Assembly (NCBI GenBank): GCA_046563655.1
Contig: CM102289.1
Coordinates: 6,696,001-6,760,000 of the forward strand
Origin: Yuukianura sp. NJ FZ-2021
Lineage: Eukaryota
Reading direction: 5' to 3'
Length of the DNA: 64,000 bases
Shown here piece by piece: positions 543 through 41,068 of the stretch. The notes under the pieces were generated by a model. That model saw nothing but the letters and a program-made list of their open reading frames with translations, searched no databases and was not told the DNA's origin. Position numbers and translations under genes: made by a program. Position 1 is the first letter of the stretch, and the number at the start of each line of letters is the position of its first letter.

Positions 543-2019
543 TTATATTGGAACAATAGTTTCGTTTGGCTTGAGTCCAACTAACTTCACACTTTTTTCC
601 CAAAGAACCCGAGCGTTGTCGTCATTTTCTCCCAAATTACTTGCTCGAGATTTCTAAAGTAAGAAATATTTTTCTTATTTAACTTAATTTTCAAAGTTAT
701 AATTTTGGTAGAAAGTGATTTTTACTTGGCAATCAACAAAGTACTCTCCGCTCATTCCCTCAACTTCTTCTGATACAGCGACATGAATTGACGTTTGTGC
801 TCCTTCAACAGTCGTCTGTTGTGTATGTTTAATCAATTAATTGAATTTATTAAAAAGCTTAACCAAATTAAAATTAAAGAGACTCACTTTAGCGAAAAGC
901 CCGAAACTAAATGTTATGATTCGCCAGTACCAAACTTCATTGAGGGTAGCGCCAAACGCAGTTTTAACAACTCCTGGATGTAGAGAATTGACTTTAATTT
1001 CTTTAATTCCAGCATCTTTCAAGCGCCGATTGAGTTCTCTAGTGAAGTAGATATTGGCCAATTTGGATAACTTATAGGCTTGCAGCGTTGTGAACGATTT
1101 TTCGGAGTTAAGATTTTCCGGATCGAAAACCTTCACATATCTATGAGCATCAGAGGATACGTTTACAATTCGGGCATTTCCGCTTTTTTTCAACAAATCT
1201 GAAAATTGTAAAAATAAAATTCTTTCGGGCAATTATTACAAAAAAGATAACGTTTAAAAAAATACCTAAAAGCAAATGTGTGAGAAGAAATGGGGCAAAG
1301 TGATTCGTTTGCATGCACAGTTCCATTCCATCTTTCGTGGATTCTTGTTTCGTCATTGGAATGCCAGCATTGTTAATCAAAATGTCCAACCGACTCTCTT
1401 CGGCAACAATTTCTTTACAAAATTTCCGAACAGATGCCAGCGAAGCCAAATCCAGTTGTTTTAGTGCAACATTTTCATTACGAGAATCTTGTTTGACTTC
1501 CTCTGTATAAATAAAAGATCCACTCAAATTAACCGAATCATTAAAGTCGAAATTTTTTGTGGGAAATATTTTTTGCACGATTATTTTTAAAATTTAATTT
1601 TACCCAACGCAGCTTTTCCTCTTTCCAAGCTTCGGCAAGCTAGAATAACTCGAGCTCCTCGTTTAGCAAGGTCCTTGGCTGTTTCTAATCCAATTCCTAC
1701 ATAGAGAATTTTGACTTTTCCTTTCAAAATTTTTTCTTTTGGAAAAAATAAACTTTGCATAATGGAGTTTATCATAACAGTAAAATTTCCTCTTACCAAT
1801 GTTAGCTCCAGTGACGATTACAGTTTTTCCATCAAGTCTTTTGTAAGACGTACAAACTCCAACAGACAATTTAGCATAGACTTTAAAACCCAAAGGAACC
1901 AAGACAAAGATTGTGATGAGAATAGGTGAGTAATATGCCAACAAAGACACCGTTAAGGAATAAAACGCGAATTCAGTCAAATAGTAGTACGGATCGCTAT
2001 TGATTCCTTGTTTAACCAT
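543..2019 (-). CDS. Retinol dehydrogenase 11/12/14-like short-chain dehydrogenase/reductase, multi-exon (copy 1)
   Basis: Spliced exons give an N-terminal TM, VIVTGANIGIG, LDILINNAG, TNHFAPF, YKLSK (YxxxK), SLHPGVV, GAQTSIH and ARVLWEKS, with TAA at 543-545. GT-AG junctions. Confidence 0.9.
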
Positions 2020-2688
2020 ATTTAGTTTAGCAGGTGACTTGACGTGATTCGGGCTAGAAAATAAACTGATTGCCGTCAAGGTTTTGCTTTTGTAGCTAGC
2101 ATTTGGCGTGTGTAAAATTGACATATTAAAATTTGGGAACGCATGATTTGTAGAAACACGTCCTTGGCAAAAAAAAGAAAGCTGGTTTTTGTCGAGTAGT
2201 TTGCTGTTGGAGTCGCAGGTAAGTGCGTATCAAAGTAAATTTGCTAGAACTTTACTTTCGATCTGTAACGTCGTGAAACATAGCCTATTGCTTGGAATAT
2301 AAAATAACCATGATCGATACTGACAACGCTTGGGTGCGTACCTATTGGAAAAAATACTTGACCTAGGATTATGATTTTCAGAACTCCAAAATTACTTTTT
2401 TGAATTTCGAACTCACTCTTCAGTCCTCATCATGGAATTACAATAATTTTTGAAACAAACAGTGTAAATTGTTTTTCCTTCCGCGGAAAAACTTGAAGTG
2501 CAAGATAAGTTTCGGATATATACGTCGTTCTGATGCAATGCCAAAAACAATTCAATTTGATCAAGCTTTGAAAATTATTGCTTTTCAATAGAGTAGAGGG
2601 CTTTAACAATCAAGCATGCTAGATTAAATTTCAAAGAAATTTTAACTGCTACAATACACCAGTTGCACAGTTATTGAAAACAAAACTT

Positions 2689-4100
2689 TCAAACTGTTTC
2701 AACGATAATTTCTGAACGGAAGATAGTTTCTTCAGACTTGAGTTCAACTGCCACCATGCTCTTTTCCCAAAGAATCCTTGCGTTATCCCCATTTCGAGCC
2801 ATCTTAGTCGGCGTAGTTTTCTGAAAACCAAAAAAAGCTTAGTTATTTTGTACTATTCCTAAAAGATTTTGATAAAAACATACTTTTTACCTTGCAATCA
2901 ACATAATAACCTCCACTGACTCCTTCAACTTCTTCTGAAACAGCAAGGTAAATTGTCGTTTGAGCCCCCTCGTAAGGAGTCTAAAAATTTTGCAATGTTT
3001 AAAACTCAACAAAACTGAAATTTTGTTTATATTAAATAGAATGCCATAAAAGGATTGAAATTCTATAGAATTTTAGTTCCAATTTAGCATCAATGGCTCA
3101 CCTTAAAGTAGAACCACAAAATCAATTTGGAGAATTTAACGTAGCAAGCGTTACTGGTATTCAAAACGTTAGTGTGCACAATTCCAGGATGGAGGCAGTT
3201 GACCGTAATGCCTTTGATTCCAGCCTCTTCCAAACGCCGTTTTAACTCCGTAGTGAAGTAAATATTAGATAATTTAGAGAGTCCATACACTTGAAGCCCA
3301 GAGTAAGATTTCTCGGAATTTAAATTTTCTGGATCAAATTTCAAGATGCTTTTGTGAGCACTGGAGGCTGTGTTCACAATTCGAGCATTTCCAGTTTTCT
3401 GCATTAAATCTGTACAAGTGAAAAGAAAAACAAATTGAAATACATTTAGTTTAAAAAAAAGACGAGACAATTTACCGAGAAGTAAATTGGTGAGGAGGAA
3501 TGGTCCAAAATGGTTTGTTTGCATGCAAAGCTCAAGTCCATCTTTCGTTATTTCCTTTTTCGTAACAAACAACCCAGCATTGTTAACCAAAATGTCTAAT
3601 CGACTCTCTTCAGCAACGATTTCTCCACAAAATTTGCGAACGGATTCAAAAGAAGCCAAATCCAGTTGTTTCAGAACTACGTCGTCATTCCCTGAATATC
3701 GTTTAACTTCATCTACAAAATGCGAGTTTAGTTATGGTAAATTTGAAAATATCTTTAGTCTAAACATTTTTATAATCAAAAAATTGCCTAATGCAGTCTT
3801 TCCTCGTTCCATACTTCGGCAAGCCAAAATGAGCCGAGCGCCACGTTTGGCCAAATCCTTAGCCGTTTCTAGCCCGATGCCTTTAGAAATGAACTGGTTT
3901 CAGGGAAATTTCGAATTAGAATTTAGCTCTTTTGGGTTACCATTGTTGGCTCCAGTGACGATGACAGTTTTTCCGTCAAGTCTTTTCTTTGATTTGCAGT
4001 ACCCAATAGACAATTTGCAGTAGATTTTAATCCCTACAAGTATCAAAATCAAAAAGAAGACAATGCCAGCAGGTATTATGTAATACAGTAACGTGGACAT
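2689..4100 (-). CDS. Retinol dehydrogenase-like SDR, multi-exon (tandem copy 2)
   Basis: Same exon structure as copy 1: [35 protein letters not shown], with TGA at 2689-2691. Confidence 0.9.
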
Positions 4101-7030: not shown

Positions 7031-8215
7031 TACCATTACCCCATTATTATTCCAAGTGAACAACAAAGGATCTTAACATATTTTAAAATCTCGAACCAAC
7101 TTCGCAGGTTCCCGCTGAAAATGAGCAATGTACGTCAGTTCATGGGTTTTCTTAGTGCCCGGGGTTCTAGTTTTTCTCGCGTGTAAATTTTTCAAACCGG
7201 AATTTGTAAACCGGTAAAATCTGATCCACGTAAAACAAAATTTACCTTTTATTCTTGATTGAAAATTTCACAGAAACGGAAATAATGGCCATTTCTGAAG
7301 GATTTCCGAAAAATACTCTACGCGCAAGGAAAAATTTCTTTCCGAAGATGTTTAACTTACATGGCGAACAACTCGTTTATGAAAATGCTTAACGCGAGGA
7401 AGGAATTTTCGGGCTCAATGTACACGTTATGCAAATACGTCGTCACCGCACAGACCAAAAATCATGAAAACTTCACATGCCATAAAAATGCAGGAAGAAA
7501 ACGGAGGTTCACGTCCAAATTGCAGGAGAACGTGGCATGTTCTTAGTAAATTTTGCTTCAAAGTGCCAAAGTAACCCTGGATTTTGGCAATGATAATAAA
7601 AAGAAACGAATTGTGTTGATGGACAAGGTAATTGGTGAATCCCACGTTCAGCCCACTTCAAGTCAAGAACACTGCTGTCTTAAGAAAACGATGTTAAGAT
7701 CTTAGTGATGCCATCAGTAGTGCTTTTTGCCCTAGTAGTTGTAGTGCCTCTTCTAGAAACTGTTACGTCACTAGTTATTTAGATCCTTAGTCCCCCCCAT
7801 AACCCACTGACTGACATTCTCATAGCCTCGCCCATGATTTGCGCCTTCTTCCGAATCTCCATCGTTAAGAGTCTCAACTCTGCGATTTGCTGCCCAGGCA
7901 AGAACGAACTGATCACTTCAGACCAGATATATTTACAACACAGACAATCCCAATCTTAAAATCAGTTTTCAAAAGCCGCTTGCTCTGAACAGTCTCTCTT
8001 TGGAGAAAACTTCGAGCTTTTTTGCCATTTTGCCAATCAGTTAATAGTCAAAAAAAATTTGGACAGTAGTCGTACTTGGTTAGCATTGTTGCTGAATACG
8101 TTGCTTTTTTAGAACAGAGCTTAAAGCAATTGCAGCAGCTTTGTTTCTTATCTTTTCTTTTTGTAGTAATTTCTGGGAAAGTCGTAGTTTTTTAAAATTT
8201 AAAGAATTTAAAAAA

Positions 8216-11200
8216 ATGGCTACAAGAACAGGGAAACAGGGGACTCCAGAACCGGTCAAGGCTCCGACGCCTCCGAGGCAACTCCCTCCAGGGGCTCCTA
8301 TCACGCAGGCGCCAGCCAAAGTAGCAAACGGCCCACCTACACCAGCAGACGCAAAACTCAACGGCGGTAAGTTTTGTTCGAACAAAAAACTGGTTTATGA
8401 AATAACTCATGGTATATAGACTACGAAGGTTTTTGATTGACGTATGAGGAAAATTTTGGTAAAATGAAGAGTTCCATAACGCCTAACGCGCATCTTTTCT
8501 TTCAACTTTTCACACAATGTAAAATGAAGAATTTTGAAATTCAACCAAATGTGAAGAATTTATTTTGAACTAAAGTATCTCATAATAAGTTATATAACAA
8601 ATTATTGTTTGCTAAGAAATTTTTTTTCTCAGTATGTGTTGAATTCTCGTTCCCGTATTTTCAAAAGAATTTTTTCTTTGAATTTTTTTTGTAGGGGTAA
8701 TCCTGTTTAGGGCGTAAACATTTGGTTTGAAAGTGTCAGTTTTTGAAAATGTTCCAAAATATATGGAATCTAGGCTGTCGTGAGTCATGCGTCTGAATAG
8801 TTTAACTAAAGTTTCTATATCATGAAGATTTATATTTTTGAAACAAGCCTCCAATGCCAAAAACACACTGAGGAGTTCAAATGTCGCGCTGCTTTGCAAA
8901 AACAAGCGAAAAGATTTTCATGTCAAGGTGAAGATGAAGCTTTTTTTTAAACTATTGAGGAAGTAGCACCTTCATCCTGTCATTAGCGTCACGAAAAATC
9001 AAAATTGGTAAACCATAAACTTCAATTAACTTTCAATTAACATGCTAACCTTTGTGTAAACGATTTATACGTAAATTTTCTACTCATTGTTGCCAATTTT
9101 TTGCACGTCAAGACTCCACTTTGCAATTGTCATAAACATAATTCATATCCGTCTTCCAAGAAAGAATATGAGATTCCTGCTCCAGAAAAAAATCTTCACC
9201 TTGAGAATTTTTAGCAGCTTGACTCTAATTTATGCATTCGCCATTTTTTTTTGCATCGTTCCGGCTCCAGGGAGTCAGCCTCTATTTTTAGCATTTTTTT
9301 TGCAAATGACTTCCCGTAGTCAAAAGGCTTAAAAACGACACTATAAAAATTTAGTGGTCTACTTTACCTTATAACCAGACGAGAGTCATGAATTCTGGAT
9401 TTGGAATTGAACTGAATTTGGAACGTGCGGCGTAGGAGCATAGAACAAACGGATTCCGCAAAAAATGGGGTGTCACAGTGCAAAAAAAAATCGCGAGTGC
9501 AGATTTTAAGCACATGTGAAATGCAGGGGAGAAATATTTGGCAACATGAAAACTGAAAACCGGGTCGGATTTTTTTAAAGAAAAATTCGGCTCAAATGAC
9601 CGAATTATTTTTGGCACAAAAGTCATTTGTTTCATTCCATTGCACTTGGTGACCTGAATTGAAAAGCAATCTCGCTCGGTACTAAAAAGGCCATTTAAAA
9701 AACGTTACAAGTCATTAATTTTTTTTGAAATTCGTGATTTCAGAAAACGGATTTGTATCTTTGATGCGTCTTTCAAGATTGGATGAAAAGAATGCTCTGA
9801 TTGGTCTCAACAATCGTCTGGCTGCTATTATCGACCGAAATCAAAAGCTAGAGTCGGAAAATGCAAAACTCAACAAAGAGGTAATTGAAATAAAAAAATT
9901 GAAAAGAAAATTCAAACTGAAGGGATTTGGAGATTTGAAACTTCTCAAAGGTGAAAGCAGTTGAGGAACGCCTTGTTGTTACCACAAATAACTTGAAGAA
10001 GACTTTTGACAATGACAATGCGGGCCTTCGGAAACAATTGGAACTACTTGAGAAAGACAAAGTCAAACTTGGCTTGTCAGAATCGAATTTGAAGAATCAG
10101 CTAAATGACGCCAATGCAAAGTAAGCCCATATTTTGCATATTTTGTAAAATTTTGTAATTACAGAAAACATTAATATTATTTTTACCCAACAAACAACTA
10201 TTTAACTTGCCCCTCCCTCACATAAGTTTGTGTTTGCTTGTCAAAAACTGGCATCAATAGCTTTGAATTTTGGCACTACTAAGTAGTAGTGACAGTTTTG
10301 AACATTAGGCTGTCAGTCTTGTTATCCTCTTCGCGGTGAGTCACAAGTCGTCGGATTTGTCACCGAAATTTTTTGGCAAAGTTGAACAATTTTTACTTTG
10401 GCACAAATCGAAAAGCACCCGGCTAGGCGCTGTTTATGACACAAAATATGAGGGCGTCAATTTAGCCGAATTACAAAAATAACCTGAATTTTTCTGAAAT
10501 TCTAGAATTCAAAAAGGCGACAAAGAAAATGCTGATCTTCAAAAGAAGTTGAAGGACGCAGACGCCAAGAATGTTGGAAACGAAGCCGAAATTAAGAAGC
10601 AGAAAGACGATATCAATAAACTGATCAAACAGAATCAAGAGCTGACCGATGAAAACAAGAAATTGAAAGATGAAAATAACAAGTTGAAGAAGGCCAACGA
10701 AGATCAACTTCTCGCGCACGTCGAACTACAGAATGCTTTGAAGAACAAGGGAGAAGAACTGCAGCTTAAGTCACAAATTCATGAACAGGAAGTCTCTGTG
10801 ATCAAAACAACGAATCAGAACAAACTCCAGGAAATGGGCGGGAAACTTCAGAAGGAATACGACACCAAATTGGAAGAAGCCATCAAGGCTCTTCGAGCAG
10901 ACTGTGAGCGCCAAATTAAAAATAACAAAGACCAGCAAGACAAACTTTATAAGATGAAGGAGGGAGACCTCAAAGGTCAACTGGACAAGGTCAATTCAAC
11001 GCTCAAGTCAAAGGGAGACGAATTGGCCAATATTATGATCAAGATCACTGAATATGACACTAAGATTTCTGGAATGGAGGGTGAGAGAGCATCGCTTCTG
11101 CAGAAATTGAAGGGAGCGGAAGACAAATTGAAGGAGGTTCAAACAAGGTTGACGAACGATTTGAAGGAAATGGAGCGTCTTTTGAAACAATTGCAAGACG

Positions 11201-11481
11201 AAAAGAGTAAATTAATCAACGAGTATCAAGATTTGATGGAGGTCAAGGTGGCTTTGGATAATGAAATTGCTACTTACCGAATTCTGTTGGAAGGGGAAGA
11301 GGAACGGTAAGTGTGGGAAATTGCAAAATTCTAAATTGCCAATTTTTTACCTTCAATCCAAAAATTATGTTTGTTGTTGCTAAATTTTGGTTTTTGATTT
11401 TTTAGACTTTGCATCTCTCCAGCTGGGCTCAACAAGAAAGTTCAGAACGAATTGGAGCAGCAGATTATTACGTCGTTGTAA
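8216..11481 (+). CDS. Lamin-derived intermediate filament protein, tail-less (isomin-like candidate), 5 exons, ~444 aa
   Basis: Coil 1A 'SRLDEKNALIGLNNRLAAIIDR' and coil 2 end 'KVALDNEIATYRILLEGEEER'. Exons ~8216-8366, 9744-9880, 9951-10120, 10506-11306 and 11406-11481 splice in frame. The tail is only 24 aa. Confidence 0.88.
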
Positions 11482-11986
11482 ACTGTTTTTTAATGGAAAA
11501 CGAGTATTACATTTTCGCCAAAAAGTTTTTTTCGATTGTTTTTTTTTCCAAAACGAGACGAAAACAGGATGTGATTGTTAGTAAAGGGGGAAGAAGTAAA
11601 AAATTGTATTAGAAAGGTGCTAGAAGCTAATCAACATTGTAATTGTGTAAATATAGTTAACACTTTCGCAATTTTAACTTACATTGTAAACCTAACATAA
11701 ACAAGGTAGGTTATCCGCTTGCGAAATTTTATTCTTATGAAAAAATGGGTTAAGAAAAGTAAACGTTAGTTGAATAGGTTTTGTCTGTCATTTCAGTTTC
11801 ATTGAGCTTATTTTGCTTTTTTAGTGTATACGAATAGAACGCTTACTTTTATTAATAAAAGTCTAAAAATGTTGTTCTTGGAATTTTTTTTGAATGGTTC
11901 AAAAAAACTGGAGAATTTTTGGAAATAGAGCAAAAGCTGTGAGCGTCTTTATTGAACAGTTTGTCTTTTTTAGTTATTTATGAAAT

Positions 11987-12683
11987 TCATTTTGCAGCAA
12001 TTTCTGACAAAAATTCGAAAGTCCATGACTGGGAGTCTTTGTTCCCTTCGGCGTCAACAGCTTCAGAAAAGGAGACTCGGCTGCCAGTTCTGGAAAATTC
12101 AAATGAAATGTTTCAGCAAAGTTATTTAAATAATAAAATAACTTATATAAATTGTGCGTTATGAACGTGGTTCCTAACCCAGTGCTCGTGAGAAACGCTT
12201 CTCCATTGTGGAGCGTGAAAGTGTTGTCTTTTCCTTCTACTGGTTCGAATTTCCAGTTCACTGGCTCCTCCTTTTGACCTTCAGCGCAATCCGCTTTCCC
12301 GCGCTTCGAGACTTCATTGTTCTTGATCTTTTCGTTCCGAATAATCTGGATCTTCTTGTCTCCTGTTTGCAAACAATACAAAATAACAATGCATTTAATT
12401 AACTGAAAGATAAATAACAAAACTAAATAATATTGAATTCCATTCAGACTTTCACCTTCTTCACGGACTTTCACTTTCCACTTCTGCTCTTCCTGCTCTT
12501 CGTATGGAGCAGTTTTGACCGTTCGTGGACATCCGTCCGTCGTGGCAGTTAGAACCTACAAATTCAAATTCAAAATGTTAGCTATAAATAATAATTTGAA
12601 ATTAGGCGCGGATAGATCAGCCTTACAGCGCCATCCAAAGATGAGACGATTTTGTACCAGCCAGCCTTGAGTCCATGTTCCAT
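11987..12683 (-). CDS. Small (~140 aa) cytosolic ricin-B/beta-trefoil-like protein, 4 exons
   Basis: Spliced MEHGLKAGWYKIVSSLDGA-VLTAT...EQKWKV...PVNWKFEPV...NTFTLHN...DSQSWTFE. Three W-ending subrepeats, two of them QxW. No signal peptide. Confidence 0.65.
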
Positions 12684-14418
12684 GTTGATGAATTAGTAAA
12701 TTTGTGATGATCTGCAGATCAAGAAAGAATTAGAGTCAAGAAGTTGCTTGGTCAAGAACCAAAATGAATCTGAATTCTAATTTGAAAGTCTCCAGTAGCT
12801 TTTCGAATGGAAAACGCCCGGCGGACTATCAATCTAAAAACGACTCGACAAAGAAACATAGATTTAAACGGATATGACTCAAAACCCTACCCTTTGTCAT
12901 ATTTTTTTGGCTTTACAATTTAGTATTCAAGGTTAAAGGGTGAGGATACTCTAGGATCTGTCTGGACTTAAACAGACAAAAGATGAACACGAAGATCCGC
13001 ACAAAAATGCAACTGGCGCCGGATGACTTATGCAGAAAAATCCTCCCCCTTCACTATTTTTCCATACTCTGGATAAAGAAACTTCGAAAAATGATGAGGG
13101 ATGTTAAATCTTTTGTTAAATTCTGAACTTTTTAGAAAGAACTTTTGGAAATTACCCAACCGAATCATCTCATTCCTCTAGTTGGCCGTTTTACATCCTT
13201 ATAGTTAGTAATATGAATCGTGAATACGTGTGTAGTAAGGCTCATAAAGTTTTCCATTTGTGTAACTTCAACCGGTGGTGACCAACCACCCACCTCGGAG
13301 TAGTTTTCCATGTTATTTTTGCATGATAATTAATAAAAGAACGATGATCATGAATGAGGTAATTGTGGTAATGAGGTAATGCATAATGAGGTAGAAATTG
13401 GTTGCATGAATCATTCAACTGGAACTTTGTAACCATTTTGGGTTAGGCTTAATTCTACAACTTTCTGAAACTGCTGAAAAACTCGTTCCGGATTTGTTCC
13501 TGATTTTGGGGCGTAGGAATGTAAAACACCGAATTGACAGATCATTGCAACTTGCAAACTGTATATCCAGAATAAGCCATGAGAATACACAAAAATGGAT
13601 GGGTTGGATTGGAATGGAATGGAAGCCCTTAAAATGATGACGTATACAAATCGTTTGCAATTTTTAAAAACGTAATGTTATGTGGTTGATGATGTTATTG
13701 CTGACCCTCATTTACTACTAAACCTCAACATTTTTGTTAATGTTATACTCAATCATTAATCAACAGTATTGGAATGCGATCATTCAGTAAGTGCAAAATT
13801 AAAGTTTGCCATCTTATTTCTCATACACTTTAGTTGAGAAATTTATGTATACGTAGTACCGTTTCTTACCTCACATTTCTAATCGAAGTAGCTGAGAAGT
13901 TTATTCGCGGGAGTCCTTACTGGATGAATTGGCGCTGCTAATTTACAATTAGTGAGTGAAGTTGATTTTAATTAACATCTGTAGAAGGGGTTAATTAATT
14001 ACAAACAAAACAAGGCATTTTCAATTTATTTGAACACGCCAAGCAAAAACAAAGCAGGAAACAGAATCGCATGCAAACTTTTTCAGAATCCCTCCACTTT
14101 GTTTAAAGCTTTCCCGCCTGTAAGTGAATTTGAGAATGAACGAATCTCACATGTACTCGAGAAGGCTTTGTTGCATGACCTTTGACCTTTTACATGAAGT
14201 TTACCTCTTCGGATTCTCAGAGGCGAATGTACATTTATCAGAACTGCCTAACGAAAATATTGTAGGAGATAAGTGTAAAGTTTTAATAATTTAGCAAATG
14301 CCTTTTCAAAAATGTTAATCACTGTAACATAATTCATTAGTGTAAAAAACTTAACAATTTTACTTGCACATTTCGGAGTTATGGCCGGTGAGTTTGCTTA
14401 TTGGAAGAAGGTGTCAGC

Positions 14419-15020
14419 TCAAAATCTGTGAAACCGAAATTAATTAAACCGATTTTTCAGCCAATACTCTCCACCATAATAATGCAAGTTATGAATGACT
14501 GCCTTGCCTTTTTCGTAGTATGTAGAAAACGACACCAAGGAACATACAGAAAGCTAAGAAAATCAGAATTCGATCAGTGAATTCTCTTCGCCCATACTTC
14601 GACAGAAGTGACCTTGATGTTCCAATCGTGGCACTTTGATCATTCAATTCCTCTCTCGTATCCTTTACCTTGGCTGACGATTGTCCTGGTCAAATCAGAA
14701 AAACAAAAACTAAGATATATGTACACCAAAACTTTCTCTTTGCCTCAAACAAATCAATTCCACGCAATGTCAATTACCCAGTTGTTCCAAAGTCAAGGCA
14801 CTTTGATTCACTGTATTGAGCAGTAACTTCTGGGACCTGGATAACGAACTCGTAGTGTCAGTGGCGACTCTCCTAGCAGCTTCCGAATTTTCCAAATTCC
14901 TTGCAAACAAAAGGACAGATTATTACATCCGCACAACTTTAAAATTACAAGCAACCCAGACAAATTTAAAAAAAACATCTTTATCTCCAGAATCAATTTG
15001 TACTAAACTTACCGTCTCAT
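14419..15020 (-). CDS. BNIP1: Vesicle transport SNARE Sec20/BNIP1-like, short form (~104 aa)
   Basis: Spliced ...TTSSLSRSQKLLLNTVNQSALTLEQLGQSSAKVKDTREELNDQSATIGTSRSLLSKYGRREFTDRILIFLAFCMFLGVVFYILRKR matches the Sec20 C-terminal SNARE+TM signature (KYxRRExTD). Not in the ORF track. Confidence 0.8.
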
Positions 15021-15873
15021 TCTGTAGAGTTATCCACCGTATCAATTCACTAATTTCTTGCAGTGCACTTTCAGTATTTAATTTAGATCAGTTACACTAA
15101 TTTCCTAAAAAGTTAAGGCACGGTCTTTATAATTTGACTTTTTGACAGCCAACAGCTGACAGGCTTGAAAACAGCTGTTTGAAATTTGAATTCGACGCAA
15201 ATTCTTCTTTCTCGCTTGCGCAGTTGTGAATGCGGCCTAATTAATGAATCCATTTTAATTTATTTCATGTGAAAAATATTGAACGTAAATTAATTCGGAA
15301 ATTAGTTAATCCGGTTACAACTAACACGACTAATTCATTAACACAAGTTTACTAACCAGGAGAGGTACCGCGGCATCATTCGACGTCACCTTCACGTCGC
15401 TAACTGGCTAACTGATGGAATTATAAATAAAAAAAAAAGATCATACGAAAACACATATTACAAAAAAAACCTTACTGACACTTTTAGAATCCGTAAATAA
15501 GTTCACAATCAAGGAATGCATAAGTTTACACTTTGGATTGGACTCACCGTAAAACAAAAAAGAAAGGAATGGAATGGACTTCATTGTTTACAAAAACAAG
15601 GTTGACAATTTAGCTAAATTAGAATGTTAAGGAAAATCGTATAGTGAACAATTTGGTATTTCTAATCTACAAGTACTCATCGATTAGCATAAACGTTTTC
15701 GGGAGCACAAGCTATTATGTTACCCAGTAACTTAGAATTTTGCTGCCCGTGGAATTACATAAGGCTTCTAGTTTGTGGTTATGTCGTGGCGACGAGCGAG
15801 TACACGACTATAAGCTTGCAGTTGATGATAATCTTCGTTTTTACTTATGATGCTGTTCAGTCTACTTGTTCAT

Positions 15874-18800
15874 TCAGTTGGATCTTTCTGGTGATCCCAT
15901 AGGCGAGCTGTCACCGGAAGACTCCGAGAGGTTACGCAATTTCCAGAAAGAGACAGTCCCATCCTCACTACAATATTTACAAAGGTAGTTAGTTACTGAA
16001 TTGGCATGTTAGGGGCGTCATATGGAAAGTCCATATGCGCGCCCCGTGGACATCGTCATAATGTCATCCGTTTGGCGACGAGCAAGAGGAAGAAGACGAT
16101 TTGGAATAGGATGCTTCTGTGGCGAAAAACAAATACCACTACTCATCACAGAAGCATTCAGTCTCCAGAATTTCACTTGTCCAACGCTGCGTGCGTTTTA
16201 GTAAAATTAAATGTTAGTTTTTCATTAGTCAATTGTTAGTAAAAGCTTTCAAAATATCTGAAAACCCAACTCACTTTGAACCTGTAAAGAGGCACGCACT
16301 GTTCGACGCGAGGCAATTGACTCCGCCTTTATGAGCTTCAACTTGACCAATCATCCGTGCCGTGTCGGTGCTCCAGACTTTCATCGTTCCATCTCGCGAA
16401 GTAGAAACAAGGTACTGAGGATATAACGCTGGGACACAAAGGCCAGAAATCCAATGTCCATGAGCGTTGTTGTAAGCCTAATAAGAATTTTTTGAAAACA
16501 TTTCTTCCAAAACCTTCAAAGTCAATTCCTGAGAACTTACAAACAGAAATTCCGGTTTCGCGTTCAGATCCCATTTTTTGATACAATTGTCACGAGATCC
16601 GGAAAATAGCGTTGCTCCAGAAAGTGCCAAGGCTTCGATCCCATCGTAATGCGGAGGATTTAGAGTTGCCTTTGGAGGGACAGAGATATTCATCAGCGGT
16701 TCATTCGTGTCATAGGAATACACCTTGAGAAATAAAACCAAATATCGTTAGATAGTTAATACATTATGTTGACCTCAACAAGAAACATTTTTTGCTTACC
16801 TTGATGGAATGATCCTTGGAGCCAGTGACCAAGGTGTTGAATCCTCTTGAATTCTGAGTCTCCATGCACATGACTTGAGAAAGATGCTTTCCAGGTAAAA
16901 CGCCAATTGACGAATAAGTTCTCAAGTCCCACATTCGCACCATATGACCATAGCTGCTGTAAAGGGCTTTCGAGCTTTCGCAAACAGCAATGGAAGTTAT
17001 CTGTTGCTCCTTGTGTGGAAGTTGTAAAAAGCTTTCAGTAGCAGGTTCGGAAACGTAGCAGATCCCGGCAGAGCTGTGAAAAATCGTGTATGTTATTGCC
17101 ATAGTAAGATTTTGATTCAAATTCCGATTAGTACTGAATTACACTTACGACATATTTTTAACGCAAGCATTAGTTCTCAAGTCGTAGACACGAATATAGC
17201 AGGATGTTGCACAAAACAAAATCTGAGACTCTGGCCAATACTTTACACGGCAGATATTAGTAGGCGGACCAAGGAGAGTGCTGATCTCCTTCATTTCATT
17301 CAGATCCCAAATCTTTACGGAAGTATCCTTTCCGCTAGTGAACAGGCGATCCTCCGTTGCATAAATATCTAACACAGCTTTCGAGTGACCTTCAGCGACG
17401 TGTGTGAGAACGAAATGTGACTTCTACACAAACAAGAATATGTTCTTTATTAGTATAATTTATCCATACAAATAATATGCTTCTATTGGCTAGAATTTCA
17501 TCCACAAAACTTCTGTACCTGACTAGCTCTACTATCCCGAATGGCTCGAATGGATCCCAGATTGACTGCTGGATTGATCATGTTCGCTCCAGAAGTGCTT
17601 GAAGTGAGCCGCTGGAAAACATTTTCGTTTCCACCTCTTCTAGATGCTCCAGGAGAACCGGGAGCAGAAACTGAGCCATTTGTAGCTTCATCCCTGATTA
17701 CACAAAGCGTTAAAAATTATTCACTACAAATACAAGTGAAAACCCTAGTACTAAAAACTTCGTGAAACCAATTTTTGTAAACTTACACAATGAAGGTGGT
17801 ATCAGCGTTGAAGTTACCAGTAGGAATATGAGAGAACTCCGAATTAGAACCATTTACGCCATTCGTAGGAGCGGAGTGCGGAGCACGGTAAGTTGATCTT
17901 GCCCCGTTAATTTTGCGACCAGCCAAAGTTGGCTTAGATATTGGTTGGGTGACGGTCGTGACGTTGTTCAAAGAATCCGTGTTGGCTGAAGATACATCTT
18001 CAGTGTTCTTGCCAATATTGAAGGTCGGCCGGCGTTCCATTCTGTACGATAAGATAATAAGTGAGGAAAACAAAAAACGTACAGTTTAAGGCTACAATAT
18101 TTCCAGAAGTCGTTACCGGTTCTGACGAGCTGTAGTTGGGGCCCTGGTAGACTGACTACGAAGCAGTGGGCCATTGCGTGCATCAACCGGTCCTGGACGA
18201 ACTGTTTAGCAAAACAAAACAGAATTTAAGCTGAAATTGCAAAATAGTGCAAAAACTTCAATTCGCTCTTACCGAATCCATCATCTTCCACTACAGTAGC
18301 CGTTGCTGGCGCAGAAAGAACCAAGTCACCCATGAGTTCTTTTCGGCTTGAGGTAAGCCTTCTGGCCTTTGCCGAGATCAACGAACGGTCGTCACCTATT
18401 GCGACTGGAACTTGTCGTCGAACGAATCTCCTTCCGGAAGTAATTGGTGAACTTGGATAAGATTCACCTCCAGACTGGGTTTCAGGCTCAGCTCCTATGC
18501 TGCAAGTATAGGGAAGCAGCGTAAATGCAAAAGATTGGAACACAAACGATAGAATTTAGTGTCTAAACTAAACCAAATTACGTTTACGACCGTTAAACCG
18601 TTTCTCATGCAGACTCGTTGCTCATGCAGACTACCACAACAATAAAACGGTAACCCAACTAACTATTGGTTTTGTTTTTTAAACAATTCACAAACATTAT
18701 ACCCGGTCTGTACTAATACAAACCAACAAAAATTACAAAATACGAGAACGAAAGAGAATATTTCAGTTGTATGTGTGTCAGTGTGTCAAAACGTTTCCAA

Positions 18801-21800
18801 GTACAGACCTCCAGAATAGCCCAAAATAACCCGCGAAAAAGTAAATCAGTGCAAACAAAAAAGTAGCAGAAAATGACCACCCATCAGCTGAACTAAATGA
18901 ACATCCCAAATTCAGCGTGCATTTGGCAATCGAAATAAATGGGGGGAAATTAAACAAAAAACTAAAATCAATCTACAAAATTAAAAACAAAATGAAAACA
19001 AGGCAAATGTCAAATGTAAATGAAAGAAGATTTCTTGTTCTTACGCTTGTCCGTTGGATTCGGTTCCATTGCCGTTTGCCTTAGCCACGGCCCGATTCCG
19101 GTTTGACGCTCGGACATTGTTGATACGTAGGGTTAGATCCGGTGACAGATTTGGATCATTGATGCAGTACTTTGCGAACATGTGAGACAAGAGCTCATTG
19201 GCAGTTAGAAGTTCTCGAGTCAGCTGTAAAATAAAAGAATTTTTTTAGGTCAAGTCAAAATCAGTTGAATATTGAAATAATCAGAGAAACTTAAGCCTCT
19301 TTCACATCGGATACGCCGTAACAACTGTCTACGGCAATTGTGACGACGTATCCATTCACACCAAACCAACTCACCGCCGGTGAGTTGGACGACGGAAGAG
19401 AAAGTTGACGGCGGAAGACGGCTGAGGTGTTCACATTGCCTCACGGCTGCCGCCGTCACATTTTACGTCGTCAACTCTTCCTACAGGAGGAGATGGGAGC
19501 CCCAAAAGTTGAAAAGTTTCAACTTTTGGACCAACTCCGGCCGGACAGTTCCCATCTCATCCCAGCTGATCATCCTTCCCCCCTTCTTTCTACATAATCA
19601 GCAGAACCAAAGTAGGAAAACAAAAGAGTAACATTGTTTAAGTGCTAATTAACAGTTAATTAAGCTAATTAACTATTAATTGTGTCTTAATACATCACCC
19701 TATAGGGAAATACGTAGCTACACCTCCCAAAGCACGGTAATGGAACAATCTGCACATCAGTAATTGTAATCATTTGGTAGTTTTCAATTCATCTACTTCA
19801 TTTGTTGTCCCATATGACACTGAAAGGCGCCTTTCAAGAATTGTGTACAAATGAAGCTGTATCACACCGAGACCGGCGTAAAACTTTCCGTAGAAAAAAT
19901 TTACGGCGTAAAATAAGCCGGTGGTGCAGTGTGAAACCCTTCAACAACTGTCTACGGCAGTTTGTTACGCCGGCACAACTGCCGTCGGCAGTTGTTACGT
20001 CGTATCCGGTGTGAAAGAGGCTTTACATTGATGTTTTCTTGTTCAGCCAAACTCAACTTTGTGGAAGTATCTTTGCACTCATCAACATTTTCCATTGTAA
20101 AAGCAAACATCTTCTGCAACAGATACTCGCAGTCCTCTTTTGTAAGATGCTCGGTGGCAAGAGTAATATCTGGAATCTGTTCCATGGCTTTCGGACTGGC
20201 GGATGTGAGATCACAAATGGCTTTTTGGTTTTGCGAAACTTGCTCATCAGAGTAGTTCATGGAGGCAGTGAGTGTATCAATTTCATCGTTAAGTCTATTG
20301 ATGTCCTCCTCGTTTAGGTTCCCTCCACTAATCTGACTTTGAATTTGCTCAATTTCTTCTTTGACTTGATGGCGATTTCGGATGTGTGTCAGCATCTCGC
20401 TTTCCAACTGCTCCATCATTTTGCGATCGACATCTCTCTTCGCAAAGGCAGATTTCAATTCGTCCCATTTCTTCTTAGCTTTGGCAGGAGATCCTCTCTT
20501 GTGAACAGCAACTGTAGCGACTTTCCCAGCAGCACGGCGACTCATTACGTTCTTGTTGTGTCTCTTGAGTGCCGAAACTTCTTCAAGTTTTCTTTTGATG
20601 ATTTGCTCCTTGAGTCGATCTTTGGATTCAAGAGCACGAATTTGCACATCCTTCTTCCGTTGGTCCTTCTTGAGCTGAAGAATTTCTTTCATTCTCTTGG
20701 CATCGGTTTCACGGAACTTTACGTTCTCCTCCTTCAGTTGATTTTGGAGTTTGACTTTATTGCGTTTCATGACATCAACATCCAACTTGAGCGCGGCTAC
20801 TTGCTTCTCAACTGCCAATTTCTTTCGGACAAGGGCGTCGTGCTCTTTCAACGCCTCTCTCATCTTGGTAAGTTCCTTCTGTAGCTCGCTTACCTTAGCT
20901 TCGTACTCGTCCTTCACCTGGAATAAAACGAAACGATTAGTAAACAGTCTACAAATAAGCAACTTATTTGATATGATTGTTTTGGAATTCTCATTCTACC
21001 TGCTTGATTTTAGCTGTAGTTGGGGCACTTGGTTTGATATTTGTCAAAATCTTATCCCGTTCTTCCTCAGTATGTTTGATCTTTGTAACAAGGATTTGAA
21101 TTTGTTGCTCATACTGCTCTTTCGTATCCATGGCTCGCTTGTTGGACAGTTCCAGTTGTTCAATCAGTCTTTGCTTCGTATTAATTTGGTCATTTATGTT
21201 TGCAATTTCTTCTTGTACTCGAAGACCATCTTCATTGTCTTCATCCTCTTCAAAATCCCCTTCACTTCCACTGTGTTCCGAAGTATCTACACTTTCTTGA
21301 CTCTCTATTCCGTTGGCTTCTTCTACGGGTTCAGCCATTGAGCTCATCCCAGTTCGGCGCCTTTTCATCTTCCTCTCCAACTTATGTTTTTGAGATTCTT
21401 GATTTGCAATTTCCGTTTGAGCAGCACTTATTATATCGATGACGGATTCTGTTTCGACGGAGGTAGCTTCGAGATCATTATAGGCAGTTCCTGGTCTACT
21501 GGTCATTGGAACGTTCAGTCTCGGCGACAAGGACTGGTTCAGCAACGCAGCAGTCGTGCTCTGCTTCCTCTTGAGCAGTTCACACATTGCTTCAGACTCA
21601 AATAACTTGACACGGAGTTCCTCAATGTCCTGAGTGTACTTGCGAATAATCTGAGTAATGTCGGAACCATCAGGATTGCTTACTATGCCTTCGCAGGCTT
21701 TCTGGGCTAAAATCTCCGCATTTGAAGCTGTGATTCTATCCAACGACTCTTGTAAAACTTTGACACGACTTCGCAGCTTTTCTAGTTCCGCAGTCAACAT

Positions 21801-24522
21801 CACATTTTCTTGATACAAATCACTTTCAACCATCTCTCCATTCCCAGCAACAAGTCTTCCCTGTAAAGTGTGAAATATGAAAATAACAATTTTATACCAG
21901 TTAAATAACTTGGAATTTCTAAGTAATTTTGATTTACTAACCTGCTTATATGCAAGGAGCTCATGCTCCAATCGTGCTATTTCCTGTTTCAGATTCGAAA
22001 TAATTCTGGAACTCTTGTCCTGGTTGATGGTGACCTTGTTCTTGATGTTTCTGGCTCTATTGGCGTACTTCAACGTGTTCAAAGTTTCCACAAAATCGCG
22101 ATCACACGGTGAGATGCAAGCAATCATAATTGTTCTGGAGTTACCGCCCAACGAGTCCTGCAGGAGACGCGTCAACTTCGAATCACGGTATGGAATGTGC
22201 GAAGCCTTTTTTGCTTTGTCGCCGAGTGCCGAGATAACGTTCCCAAGAGCCAGCAAACCACAGTTAATAGAGATGCCTTCCTTGGCGCGATCTCCAACGG
22301 CACCAGTTCGCTTCAAACGTTCAGACCCGGCAAGATCGACGAAGTGAAATTTGGCCGACAGCGTTTCAAATTCTGGTGCGCTGGATTCTTCGCCCTGAAA
22401 ACATCAACATCACGGTGAGTACAGGTAACATGTGTTAAGTTAAGTCTATACGGCGAGACGTCTAACCTTTTCCTCAGGCTTGACTATACGCTGTTGGTAA
22501 ATGTGCAATGTAAAAATGGCGTGAGACCTGCTGGAACTGTCATTCATATTAGTTGAAGCTGTAGAACGAACAAGGGCTCCATCTCGCAGGCAAGTCATGG
22601 TCTCCGCTGCCGAGTTTACTTGTTTAGTCTCTACACCGAGCATAGATATTATTCCAGACGGATCTTCACGAATCTTGATTCCGCTCCTACCTTGTCGATA
22701 AGCCTAAAAAAGAAAAAAAATCAAAGTATTTCAATTCCAGGACGAGTTATATGTATTTACACTCCTTTTTGAGTTATCTTAACATTGCCAGACTACAGAC
22801 AAAGATGCTGTTAAGCATGGAGAATCTTAGACATGTAGGATTTCCATTTGAAGTTTCCTTGGCCACAGCTCATTTTCCTTTTCGGCTCGTGTAATAAGGC
22901 CAAATCTTAATTTTAATTTCCGGACTGTTTGACTTTGTGGTTCGTTAACTCCTTCGTTCAAAATTAACGAGTCATTCAGTGTCAGTAAAAGTGAAATTGG
23001 TAAATATCCAAATCACCTTTCCGTCATTCACGTTACGACCATATATAGAATGCTTCAAAACTTACATAGATTTCATAAGGAGTCCACTTATTCACCTCAT
23101 TCCATTTCCATTAACTAAATACCTTTTTCATTTTTGTTAGCATTCCATATAAGGCGACAAGGTCAAGATGATCTTTTACTCTATCCGTCAACCCGCCCAT
23201 TCGTTCTCATCCATTTGGCAAATACGCGAATTTACTTATTCCCATTTACAATTTTAGCGTGTGAAGTTCATGCACGCAGGGGAAGTTAACAAGGAAGTAT
23301 AAATGGTTTGCAAAGGCGTTTCAAAGTTAAATGAAAAATATTTCTATGCAAATTGAACAATGGGCGTTTCTAAAAAGCCTGCAAAAACTGAAAACACACT
23401 TTTTAGTGTTTTAGAAACTTACGCAATTGAGTTCAACTTGAAAGAGCGTGTAGGAGAATTAAATGCAGGAAGTAGGGGAATAAATTAGCATAGTAACTAA
23501 AGTAAAGTGAATCAAAGCAATAGCACTACCACTAAACACTAACCATTGACGGAGTACTGCCACCAAAAGCTTTGGAATCATTCCAGGAGCGAGCACTGCA
23601 AGGTGCGGAGTAATTTGAGTTGACGTCTGAGCCAGTTTCGGTTGGAACAGATGAAGCAAGCTTGGAAGTCAAGCAATGCTAATGAAGCAATTACATAAGT
23701 CAATTCTATAGAATAAGCTTTAAACACCACTTATCTTTAGTGCGAAAAGAAAAATTGAAGGATTATTTCAGGCTGTATGAGGTTTGGATTAATAAGAATA
23801 GTGTGGTCCTTGACGTGACAGAATTGGCTTTGATTAAAAAATTACCTTGATGTCAGAGGAAATTAGATCGTTGATTTCTTCGTTATGCAATTCCACGAAT
23901 TGCGCCTTTACAGTGAACTCTGGCGGAGATTCGTTTCGATCAAGCATTTCTTGCCGAATCTTGTCGATTCCATTGAACAAATGATGAACTGCCCGAGGAA
24001 TGATGCCTTGAGAGGGGGCCACTTCACTGAATGAAAGATGCTCCGTATCAAAACCAGTACCCATAGTATAAGTTTTGCCGGAGCCAGTCTAAAAACAAAA
24101 GAACTAACTAATAATAATCGAGATCACACCAAATTCATAGGATGAATTGTTTCTCGAATTCAGCTATAATCTTACCTGTCCATACGCCAAAATGGTTGCA
24201 TTGTAGCCTGATAGGCATCCATCTACAAGCTCCTCAACGGTGCTAAATACTTCCAGTTGCGAGACGTCGCTATCCAGGACATGATCAAAAGTGAAACCAG
24301 TATTACTCACCCAGATCTGAGGCTGCCCTGGTGTAACGCTGGTGCAAATCTGACACCCATCGATCGTCTCCCTTGGAACTCGCGGGCGAATCCTACAAAT
24401 ATCAAACATTAGTCCAAAAAATGTTCGAATACTAGGTAATAATTAAGTTAAAATTAAAGAATTGCTAATAAAAACTATCCACCAACTCACCTAACAGCAA
24501 CTCGAACGGATGATTCGTCCAT
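15874..24522 (-). CDS. KIF21: Kinesin-4 family KIF21/Klp31E-like motor (N-terminal motor, coiled coil, C-terminal WD40), multi-exon
   Basis: [64 protein letters not shown], long coiled coil and WD40 repeats ([14 protein letters not shown]). Confidence 0.95.
19294..20022. mobile_element. Non-autonomous PIF/Harbinger (Tourist-like) MITE in a KIF21 intron
   Basis: TIRs 'agcctctttcacatcggatacg' and 'cgtatccggtgtgaaagaggct', flanked by TTA direct repeats at 19291-19293 and 20023-20025. Confidence 0.85.
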
Positions 24523-25434
24523 TTTGGTTCAAAAGTACCACCTCAAATCCAGGGAAACTGCCTTGTCGGTCAACCGAGGCGATTCCGTAAAAATTTAAAT
24601 CATTCCTTGTTCCGGTAATACGCACAATCGCTCCAAACGTTCCTCCGAGCTCTGGGCTCACGAATTCCGCAGAAAGAGATCGCGTTCCAGATAGTACACG
24701 AGTGACCTTGACCGACAGGCACTTGAACTGACGGTGTGCAATACTAATTCCAGTCCGGTACAATAGTAAGGCGATCTGAAAGAAAACAATTAAAATGAAT
24801 TCCGTTACAAAGTAAACTAACGGTAACGGTTATAAAAGTTAAAGTTGACTGACCCTAATTAATTGACTCAGAGTTGTCCAGAGATTAGAGATACCAATAC
24901 TTCCTTGTTTTCTTACGTCACTTTACGTCCACAAATCCACAAAGAGCTTTCAACGGACACAAAATTAACGAACTCTTGGAAAGGAAGATGTTCACGGTCT
25001 TTATCTCGCAAAACTTTACAACTGACTGCACACAATTCTTTTTTTGATTGATCTTTACCTACTCTCTCTCAACGGAACAGGTTTTTGTCTTCGATTGAAG
25101 TACGGGCAACGCTTACGACTTGTTACCCGAATGAATTAAACAGATGTAAATGTATTATTACAAAATAGAATATCCATACTTTTAAGGACGTGTGTTATGC
25201 GTCTAATAAACAATAATCGTTAAATTTAGTAACCACGATAACCGAGCTTGTGTAGTTAGTAAAAGTTGCAGACATCGACAAAAAGAAACACCCTCGTGAG
25301 TGGTGAAAAAGGATCAGTGCAAATAACCTTGATAAAAAAAAAGTATGCACTTTCAAACAAACAAAACTGACGCAAGTTCGGTTGCCGTCGTTTGGGTTTT
25401 GTCAACAACTTTTCTGAGGCTGCGACATTGAAAT

Positions 25435-25716
25435 GCAAAAATGGTTTTGGTCAGCGTGGGAATGTCGTACAGTAACCCACAATATATCAAACTTTAGGAA
25501 AAGAGTTGATCTAGTACTATTACGTTTTAAAATTATGAAATTATAATTCTAACAATGAAAAAAATGGACACAAATATTCAGCCCCTTTTTCTGCATAGTT
25601 ACACTTGGAATTAAATAAGTTTGCAACGTAATAGTACTAGATCAAGTCTTTGCCTAAAGTTTGATATATTGTAGGTCACTGTACGACATTTCTACGCTGA
25701 CCAAAACCATTTTTGC
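25435..25716. mobile_element. MITE-like long inverted repeat (~92 bp arms, ~100 bp spacer)
   Basis: 25435-25526 'gcaaaaatggttttggtcagcgt...gatctagtactattacgtt' is the reverse complement of 25625-25716, with scattered mismatches. Confidence 0.75.
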
Positions 25717-26537
25717 GTGGCGGTGTTACAGCGGCATTTTGACCCCCAGTTTCCAGGGTGTCCGCACACCTTAACATAAAAAATTACTGGCAAGCCGTGC
25801 GGCTACATAAATAAGGGTAATGTAATAATTAATTAGACAGATGTCAAGGTGATTCCATGTTTATTTTCACAATACGTTTCAATTATTATTCAACGCGGAG
25901 CCCTCCACATTTTTCGTTGATAATTATTCCGTAATGTTCCCTCAAACAAAAATTATTTTAGAAGTGTCCTTTTTCACAGCACACGACGTCATGTTTGTCA
26001 TCTGCATTCAGGCAGGTCACATGATTCGTACCGCAAACAAAAATTTGCGTGCATCTCTGTTTTGAGAATTCAAGTTGATTTATTTTTAAATCATTTTTCA
26101 ATTTTATTTTAATATTTCGCTGGGTTCAAAATCTTACTTTCAATTATCTGTTCAGGTCAAATGGCAGGCGTTGTAATTAATTAAGCATGAGAGTATGACA
26201 GCACTACTTTTGGGTAGCTAACCATACGCAGCGAGTTGAACTTTTGTGGTACATTGGTGTAACCGTAACGTTACGTCAACTATCCCTGCTATACTTGACA
26301 TATTAGGGATGGACACTAACAATGTAATGTTTTCATTTATTTTTAATCGATATTTTAAATAATTTATTGACACTAGTTAAAATTATAACTGTATCAGCTG
26401 AATATATTTATTTTGTATTTCTTCCGTATTTATGAGTTGAAAGTATTCTTTGTTGTAAAAGCACTTCAATTTTGGCATTTGCTATAACCTTATTTGTAAT
26501 TTTGTTCCTGTATCTAGCATAATTTAATTACCAAAAT

Positions 26538-27786: not shown

Positions 27787-28359
27787 TTTCTAATTCAGAT
27801 TCAGAAATTTCACAAATTCAAAGATTTAACTTTTTCTAAAAATAGTTTACTCAAGTACAACAGCAACAAAAGTCAGCTGATCCGCTAATTTGAATTGATG
27901 GATTGAACTAATCCGTTCTGGTGCTACTTGTACTTACCAAAAACAAACTATAAAGCTCAAACTTTTTATAAAAACTGAGGGAGGTTGCTTTAAGGACGGA
28001 GAATGAAACCGTGTCAAGAAATAGCGTCGAGTGGAACAAAAAGCGGAAGGTCAAAGAAACTTTATCTCTATGCAGCATAATGTAAATGTAACACTGTTCA
28101 AATCACAAAAACTTTCGAACTTGAACTTTTGAAAATTTAACAATCGATACTTACTTGAATATAAGTATAGTTGTATTTTGTATATTGTCACAGAGAGCGG
28201 TGAATTTTTTAAAGAGACTACATTTTCCAAGCAACTTTTTATTTAAATCCGGAGAAATATTGCTCTTACAAATAATGCATTTCTATGCATAATTTTTAAT
28301 TATCTGAAACCAAAAATGCTGTAAAGTTTGCAGTCCCTTGCTAAAAGTACTTTATTGAT

Positions 28360-40790: not shown

Positions 40791-41068
40791 ACAACATTTA
40801 TTTCAACAATGTTCGTAGTAATTTATTGTTTGAATGTTGCAATAATCTATAGTGTAAAATCATATAAATGTTATAGAATGATTGTTTTGTAAATGAAGTA
40901 CAGTTGTGCTAAGAGTGTCGGCTGCAAATGTGTAATCTTGCTTCCAGCCGGAATTGAACTGACATGTACCGGCGTGTTTAACCTACAAAGCAAAACGCGA
41001 ATAAATTTAAAGGTTAAATTGTAAACTAAAAAAAGCTCTAGAAATGTAAATAATAATTTCTTGTATGC

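Follow-up and report, generated by a model that had tools for sequence, protein, structure and literature searches.

Introduction

Arthropods were long believed to be without cytoplasmic intermediate filaments (IFs). Isomin, reported in 2011, and a re-analysis published in 2016 showed that springtails, copepods and tardigrades each rebuilt cytoplasmic IFs from lamins (Mencarelli et al. 2011, BMC Biol 9:17; Hering et al. 2016, eLife 5:e11117). Here we analyze a gene for a lamin-like IF protein located on the + strand at 8216-11481 of a 64-kb window, the window being the whole stretch of DNA studied (positions 6,696,001 to 6,760,000 of contig CM102289.1). This gene is very probably a collembolan, lamin-derived IF gene that originated from a duplicated arthropod lamin and has lost the entire lamin tail, i.e., its nuclear localization signal (NLS), Ig-like lamin tail domain (LTD) and CaaX box. 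A preliminary description of the DNA, made from the sequence alone, had already called the protein lamin-derived.

Isomin is a protein of ~40 kDa from the midgut terminal web of Isotomurus maculatus (GenBank FJ264504), which forms filaments in vitro. According to its published description, it has a head of only 13 amino acids (aa) and a long coil 1B, and it lacks a lamin-homology segment, an NLS and a CaaX box. The heptads of its coil 1a are lost, and this region is followed by a Gly/Ser-rich stretch; the stutter comprises two residues rather than four; the coils are basic, with isoelectric points (pI) of 8.8 and 9.4; and the tail contains 20.4% Gly and an Arg-Pro stretch at residues 371-376 (Mencarelli et al. 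2011). According to Hering et al. (2016), panarthropods lost the ancestral cytoplasmic IF gene, collembolans possess duplicated lamins from which the NLS has disappeared, and isomin groups with these inside the arthropod lamins. The same authors described cytotardin of Hypsibius dujardini, a cytoplasmic lamin duplicate of independent, tardigrade origin that lacks the NLS, the LTD and the CaaX box. In a 2025 preprint, the re-evolution of IFs from lamins is taken as settled for tardigrades and collembolans. Judged by titles and abstract openings, the literature from 2016 on contains no later study dedicated to the collembolan lamin-derived IF family. The protein studied here is a further member of this known kind of protein, the group of Hering et al. 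(2016), and no new invention; the collembolan transcripts used in that work may already include orthologues of it.

Results

The gene encodes a lamin-type IF protein without a lamin tail

Splicing of the exon coordinates resulted in an intact open reading frame (ORF) composed of five exons. The coding sequence of 1335 nt specifies a protein of 444 aa with a predicted mass of 50 kDa and a pI of 8.6, which can be divided into a head of 64 aa, a rod of 356 aa (starting with EKNAL at residue 65 and ending with EGEEER at residue 420) and a tail of 24 aa. These numbers agree with the preliminary description, in which a rod of ~356 aa between EKNAL and EEER, a remainder of 24 residues and a Pro/Ala-rich head had been noted: the exact rod count is 356, splicing and translation gave the 24 residues, and the head contains 12 Pro and 8 Ala among its 64 residues. 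The four introns (1377, 70, 385 and 99 nt) are short and all of the GT-AG type, the GC content of the window is 34-42%, and the window does not contain a single N.

Exon 1 (8216-8366, +) contains the start codon and most of the head (residues 1-50), and its last G is followed by the donor sequence GTAAGT. Homology of this exon is weak: the only tblastn match was with relative P0138 (E = 0.8, 8192-8368) and no Pfam family was detected, but the start of the protein (MAT..) parallels the MASK.. of its relatives. Exon 2 (9744-9880, +) completes the head (..FVSLMRLSR) and specifies coil 1A, in which the helix-initiation motif EKNALIGLNNRLAAIIDRN is located; it matches positions 1-32 of the Pfam Filament profile (E = 5.2e-5) and was detected by tblastn with all eight lamin queries used and with P0002, P0138 and P0005. 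Exon 3 (9951-10120, +) runs from the last part of coil 1A through linker L1 into coil 1B. Taken alone it gave no Filament match, but tblastn revealed 64% identity to P0002 (E = 3e-17) and 66% to P0138 over 9945-10121. The largest exon, exon 4 (10506-11306, +), encodes the remainder of coil 1B, in which the 42 lamin-type residues are located, followed by L12 and by coil 2 as far as the termination motif, which reads ..EIATYRILLEGEEE(R). On its own it matches positions 56-312 of the 313 positions of Filament (PF00038) with an E-value of 2.6e-33 and 116.5 bits (cut-off 40), and it is 90% identical to P0001 and 68% to P0002. Exon 5 (11406-11481, +), the terminal coding exon, specifies the 24-aa tail (LCISPAG...ELEQQIITSL) and the stop codon TAA at 11479-11481; the tblastn match with P0002 reaches 11478. 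The sole AATAAA/ATTAAA in the region 11482-12100 is an AATAAA at 11854-11859 (+), a likely polyadenylation signal whose use would probably give a 3' untranslated region (UTR) of about 0.4 kb.

Based on the Filament match, the protein is assigned to the IF superfamily. Conserved motifs mark the two ends of IF rods, one for helix initiation (..LNxRLAxxIxxxxxLExxN) and one for helix termination (..EIATYRxLLEGEE). The translation contains both, and the motif columns at the rod ends are invariant, or nearly so, in two family alignments. In an alignment made with MAFFT, the 356-residue rod was free of gaps with respect to all three canonical lamins included, those of P0143, Nilaparvata and Xenopus (B1), each of which also has a rod of 356 residues. 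Vimentin and keratin 8 displayed a single gap of 42 residues at residue 160 of the window protein, in coil 1B. These 42 residues are the classical insert of lamins and protostome IFs. The rod has a pI of 7.07 and the head one of 10.4. Rod identity to the window protein was highest for P0002 (68.5%), followed by Folsomia P0136 (52.1%), Folsomia P0013 (40.9%), Orchesella P0139 (38.1%), the lamin P0143 (36.8%), an insect lamin (29.2%) and vimentin (24.0%).

Canonical arthropod lamins, such as P0143 and Nilaparvata lugens lamin Dm0 (P0149), thus share the complete gap-free rod with the window protein, but they have a tail of roughly 190-200 aa with a KRKR signal, an LTD and a CaaX box (CVIM in P0143), none of which is found here. 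The 444 residues contain no run of three or more K/R and no bipartite basic pattern, the tail having only two Lys. The C-terminus (..ITSL) is not a CaaX box, and the only Cys are at residues 286 and 422. No LTD (PF00932) was detected in the 24-aa tail, in which L, I and Q are the commonest residues. The absence of the LTD, the basic NLS and the CaaX box noted in the preliminary description therefore holds for the translated protein, and scans of the downstream DNA, presented below, confirmed it as well. Three K-K-x-K motifs were found (residues 166, 183 and 204), all of them inside the coiled-coil rod. Immediately behind the rod, at residue 424, an S-P is present in a context similar to that of lamin P0143 (..RLCISP.. 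versus ..RLSISP..), and it has the appearance of a remnant from a lamin ancestor.

The head has changed as well. As had been noticed before, the site that precedes the rod reads SLMR, and the aligned residues are T-P-T-R in P0002, P0138 and the canonical lamin P0143. We take this T-P site to be the mitotic CDK1 site of lamins. Searches of intron 1 by tblastn with P0002, P0138 and P0005 did not reveal an alternative head exon with T-P-T-R. The head sequence of the window protein is unrelated to those of the annotated Folsomia and Orchesella proteins, and it does not have the T-P-x-[RK] site found before the rod in P0002, P0138 and Folsomia P0136.

The exon encoding the short tail is terminal

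The absence of a lamin tail would have little meaning if the tail were encoded by exons located further downstream. We therefore screened the DNA behind the stop codon. For this, 131 stop-to-stop ORFs were used: 116 on the plus strand, which are all those of at least 38 aa in the region 11482-30000, and 15 on the minus strand. PF00932 was detected in none of the 131 at E <= 0.05. In addition, the complete window was searched by tblastn with eight LTD-bearing lamins. None of the eight gave a lamin-tail match with E < 0.01 anywhere in the 64 kb, whereas all eight matched exons 2 and 4. These searches did not reveal a second IF gene in the window either.

The best lamin-tail match was located at 27406-27567 (E = 0.018 and 1.1, with a mite and a crab lamin). 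It was rejected: the surrounding ORF (27184-27735) contains no Pfam family at E <= 0.05, and minus-strand genes are located between this site and the IF gene. The first of these genes is marked by an exon with a Sec20 domain (14492-14689, -; PF03908, E = 2.1e-14) that probably belongs to a BNIP1/Sec20-type SNARE gene, situated between the IF gene and a kinesin gene. The latter, a KIF21-like kinesin gene (16274-22403, -), has its motor and KIF21A-like domain exons at 19955-22403 and its WD40 exons at 16274-17423, and is convergent to the IF gene.

Transcripts of relatives that are 52-69% identical to the window protein gave the same picture. Transcript contig L001, which encodes P0138, runs without interruption from the end of the rod through a 24-aa tail (..LEQQIITAL) and a TAA codon into ~100 nt of UTR, and transcript L003 (P0005-like) continues behind its stop codon for over 600 nt of UTR. 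P0002 (431 aa) ends with ..ELEQQIITAL, which differs from ..ELEQQIITSL of the window protein at one position. The tails of all 16 relatives that form a clade with the window protein (see below) are 10-46 aa long. The claim that exon 11406-11481 is terminal is thus borne out by the relatives' transcripts, by the lack of a downstream LTD and by the minus-strand genes that follow.

The tails contain a C-terminal motif, [LI][DE]xQI, which is shared by the window protein, P0002, P0138, P0005, P0136, P0004, P0007, P0009/P0137 and P0144, and is absent from P0140, P0141 and the P0013 group. The presence of such a subgroup-specific motif hints at a conserved function of the tail.

A different ending was found for P0001, a metagenome protein that is encoded on a genomic contig and is 90% identical to the window protein over exon 4. 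Following EGEEER it reads YRLHLTSWNCFLY*. These 13 residues resemble the start of exon 5 of the window gene plus the first codons of its 3' UTR, in the +1 frame (11307-11500 of the window). Intron 4 and ~54 nt of the tail exon, the part encoding LEQQI, thus seem to be missing from P0001, which may represent an allele with a truncated tail, a copy in decay or an artefact of the assembly.

The protein clusters with LTD-less collembolan proteins

A word-indexed search with exon 4 resulted in the identification of 15 proteins, all of which contain a Filament domain only. The named ones are Folsomia candida "lamin Dm0 isoform X1/X2" (421 and 417 aa; P0013 and P0014). A profile search restricted to proteins of 201-763 aa, with 8000 scored candidates, gave 133 proteins with E <= 1e-10. 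The best 120 of these 133 added a Folsomia "Lamin Dm0" of 519 aa (P0136), an Orchesella cincta "Lamin-C" of 413 aa (P0139), several other short-tailed proteins, and LTD-bearing lamins, among them P0143 (596 aa), which has KRKR, an LTD and CVIM. Finally, a HMMER search of 1.84 billion representatives gave 4399 proteins with E <= 0.001, of which 1892 had E <= 1e-10 and 296 had E <= 1e-30. Most of the best 150 of the 4399 are of lamin length; further names were an Orchesella cincta "Lamin-C" without LTD (P0293, 406 aa), Lygus fragments, and "lamin-C-like" P0262 (400 aa) of the fly Condylostylus longicornis. Isomin did not appear by name among the listed matches of the homology and representative searches. 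The names also make clear that LTD-less collembolan proteins are routinely mis-annotated as "lamin Dm0" or "lamin-C".

A maximum-likelihood (ML) tree was constructed with IQ-TREE (LG+C20+F+G4, posterior mean site frequencies (PMSF), UFBoot/SH-aLRT support) from 41 rows: the window protein together with 16 relatives that have no LTD, 21 lamins that have one and, as root, the three vertebrate cytoplasmic IFs keratin 8, vimentin and NF-L. The fragments P0001, P0003, P0006, P0008, P0010, P0011 and P0015, the isoform P0014 and most vertebrate lamins and keratins were omitted.

All 17 LTD-less rows, which include two Folsomia candida proteins and one of Orchesella cincta, formed a single clade (100/100), and the sister of this clade is P0143, the lamin with LTD, NLS and CaaX box (100/100). 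Together they grouped weakly with insect and decapod lamins (80/88), inside the protostome lamin clade (99/99). The window protein is therefore placed inside the lamins and not among the cytoplasmic IFs, of which the three vertebrate proteins are the only ones in the tree. This position within the arthropod lamins and the gap-free alignment of the rod with canonical lamins agree with the lamin-derived nature stated in the preliminary description.

The LTD-less clade is composed of two old groups, one containing Folsomia P0013 and Orchesella P0139 (95/87) and the other comprising 12 rows (96/84). The window protein belongs to a subclade of eight rows that also contains Folsomia P0136 (99/98), and its position is next to P0002 (94/84). 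P0136 appears to be the orthologue of the window gene in Folsomia: the two share 52% rod identity and the C-terminal [LI][DE]xQI motif, but the tail of P0136 is 34 aa long and that of the window protein 24 aa.

A second, quick tree with other sampling gave the same picture, P0245 joining the LTD-less clade. In this tree, an unresolved collembolan group of 20 rows (99) also took in the long-branch Orchesella protein P0293 and another LTD-bearing lamin, P0246; its named LTD-less members, two Folsomia and two Orchesella proteins, are all collembolan. The branch of P0293 within this group is very long, and this protein is a candidate for an isomin-like lineage.

Discussion

The results presented here point with good confidence to a collembolan IF derived from a duplicated arthropod lamin. 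With the collembolan NLS-less family the window protein shares the lamin-length rod, the lack of LTD, NLS and CaaX box, a tail within the range of 10-46 aa and membership of one clade. In origin and kind of architecture it resembles cytotardin as described, also a lamin duplicate without NLS, LTD and CaaX box, but cytotardin, which is not in our trees, has an independent tardigrade origin according to Hering et al. (2016).

What the protein does can be proposed from its layout. The rod would form parallel coiled-coil dimers, which would assemble into tetramers and then into filaments, and the basic head would serve this assembly as in other IFs. A protein without an NLS would stay in the cytoplasm; without a CaaX box it would be neither farnesylated nor anchored to a membrane; and without an LTD the binding surface of the lamin tail, and the interactions it supports, would be gone. 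The outcome to be expected from the loss of these three elements, with the rod retained, would be a cytoplasmic stress-bearing filament.

Some observations weigh against parts of this proposal. Cytoplasmic localization and filament formation are predicted from IF biology and from isomin and cytotardin, and a cryptic NLS could reside in the K-K-x-K motifs of the rod. In the quick tree, two of the 20 LTD-less rows, P0275 (388 aa) and P0262 of the fly, were placed among insect lamins; these two are probably truncated models or separate losses of the tail, but because of them the clade is not defined by a short tail as such. The different ending of P0001 may indicate that the tail is labile or that the P0001 copy is defective. 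Lastly, of a phylogeny with lamins, isomin and cytotardin, as envisaged in the preliminary description, the lamin part stands with its well-supported LTD-less clade (100/100), but isomin and cytotardin are not among the rows of our trees, and neither are copepod sequences.

The preliminary description had offered two origins, orthology with isomin or a cytoplasmic IF that was re-invented independently. Neither agrees with our results: the protein nests in the Folsomia/Orchesella LTD-less clade, and it does not have the features described for isomin. That it would be a strict orthologue of isomin, working likewise in the midgut, is unlikely. In favor of it, the overall architecture is shared, i.e., both are arthropod IFs with a lamin-length coil 1B, no LTD or lamin-homology tail, no NLS, no CaaX box and a short tail, and Hering et al. 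(2016) place isomin among collembolan transcripts inside the arthropod lamins. However, by the published description of isomin, the head has 13 aa versus 64 aa in the window protein; coil 1a is degenerate, whereas coil 1A of the window protein is canonical and aligns without gaps to those of lamins; the tail is Gly-rich with an Arg-Pro stretch, whereas that of the window protein has 24 aa, ends at residue 444 and contains no such stretch; and the coils have pI values of 8.8 and 9.4, as compared to 7.07 for the rod of the window protein (Mencarelli et al. 2011). Because its coil 1A is normal, its head long and its tail not Gly-rich, the window protein is probably a paralogue rather than an orthologue of isomin. 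Folsomia and Isotomurus belong to the same family, the Isotomidae. In Folsomia P0136, the apparent counterpart of the window gene by orthology, coil 1A is normal and the head is long, and isomin is therefore most simply explained as a further, more divergent paralogue.

It is very unlikely that the protein has kept a nuclear role or one at the envelope of the nucleus, for instance by co-assembly and import with a canonical lamin or by entering the lamina after mitosis. Such a role would be in line with the lamin-length rod, which is 36.8% identical to that of the sister lamin P0143, with the S-P retained behind the rod and with the K-K-x-K motifs. It is opposed by the absence of an NLS from both head and tail, and by the loss of the pre-rod T-P site of P0143, P0002 and P0138. 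Moreover, isomin and cytotardin, the two experimentally studied proteins with such an architecture, are cytoplasmic according to their published descriptions.

More improbable still is that an arthropod lineage outside the Collembola lost the lamin tail on its own, which would amount to a fresh re-invention of a cytoplasmic IF. Most of the close relatives are indeed metagenome or metatranscriptome proteins, and the epoxide hydrolase exon described below, with equal identity to a collembolan and a beetle, does not separate Collembola from insects. However, the window protein nests inside the LTD-less clade and not beside it, and Folsomia P0136 is nearer to it than to its own Folsomia paralogue P0013. 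The IF tree is the strongest evidence on the source of the DNA, which is probably a collembolan without a close relative among annotated genomes. From the nesting and the distances within the clade it follows that the loss of the tail and the split of the paralogues predate the lineage of the window gene. The exclusively collembolan names in the 20-row group also argue against this scenario.

Least probable of all is that exons for the LTD, the NLS and the CaaX box of an ordinary nuclear lamin were overlooked through alternative 3' splicing or a mis-modelled terminal exon: the rod length is that of lamins and the NCBI labels are "lamin Dm0" and "Lamin-C" for the relatives in Folsomia and Orchesella, but the LTD-free downstream ORFs, the E-value of 0.018 without Pfam support for the best tail match, the minus-strand genes behind the stop in a window without assembly gaps, the spliced transcripts of relatives, which stop after short tails, and the tails of 10-46 aa in all 16 relatives of the clade speak against it.

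In the light of a collembolan, lamin-derived IF family, it is conceivable, though rather doubtful, that springtails have rebuilt a multi-gene cytoplasmic IF system from lamin, independently, in which the gene described here serves a distinct, non-midgut network or provides a keratin-like partner for heteropolymers. This idea is based on the existence of LTD-less paralogue groups of ancient origin, at least two in number (the P0136 type, which includes the window gene, and the P0013 type), in addition to the divergent isomin or P0293, and on the [LI][DE]xQI motif particular to the subgroup.

The locus provides a clean genomic model for one branch of the springtail IF family, with the arrangement of the exons, the last of which encodes the short tail, and a gene in convergent orientation downstream, and the trees indicate that the LTD-less proteins are monophyletic and already split into old paralogue groups, both of which are present in Folsomia. 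Its value lies in annotation and in choosing targets for localization studies; the current picture of IF evolution is left unchanged.

Other genes in the window

Upstream of the IF gene, two adjacent short-chain dehydrogenase/reductase genes are located at 837-3731 (-), with adh_short matches of E = 5e-21 and 3e-8; they appear to be a tandem duplicate.

Downstream of the kinesin gene, three paralogous small ORFs are present on the + strand (33101-33577, 36023-36370 and 39107-39466), with signal-peptide-like starts (MAFKL.. or MVFKL..) and conserved Cys. At least two of these precede hydrophobic ORFs that look like multi-pass membrane proteins (33959-35474 and 39784-40119, +), an arrangement that resembles a repeated two-gene unit. 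No Pfam family was detected in the three ORFs of this unit that were tested. The same region contains, on the - strand, a gene for a bulb-type lectin (B_lectin, 36723-37118), two ORFs with Gly/Tyr repeats (GYGG..) that look secreted (38465-38833 and 41007-41408) and a beta/gamma-crystallin ORF (31517-32032, E = 1.9e-7).

A C2H2 zinc-finger gene is located at 42020-42880 (-) and a long single-exon ORF with a Methyltransf_32 domain at 47993-50026 (+). These are followed by a gene for a juvenile-hormone-type epoxide hydrolase (50558-52175, +), which combines EHN and alpha/beta hydrolase domains; the identity of its exon to hexapod proteins is about 50-57%, and the value of 57% is reached by both the collembolan Allacma fusca and a carabid beetle.

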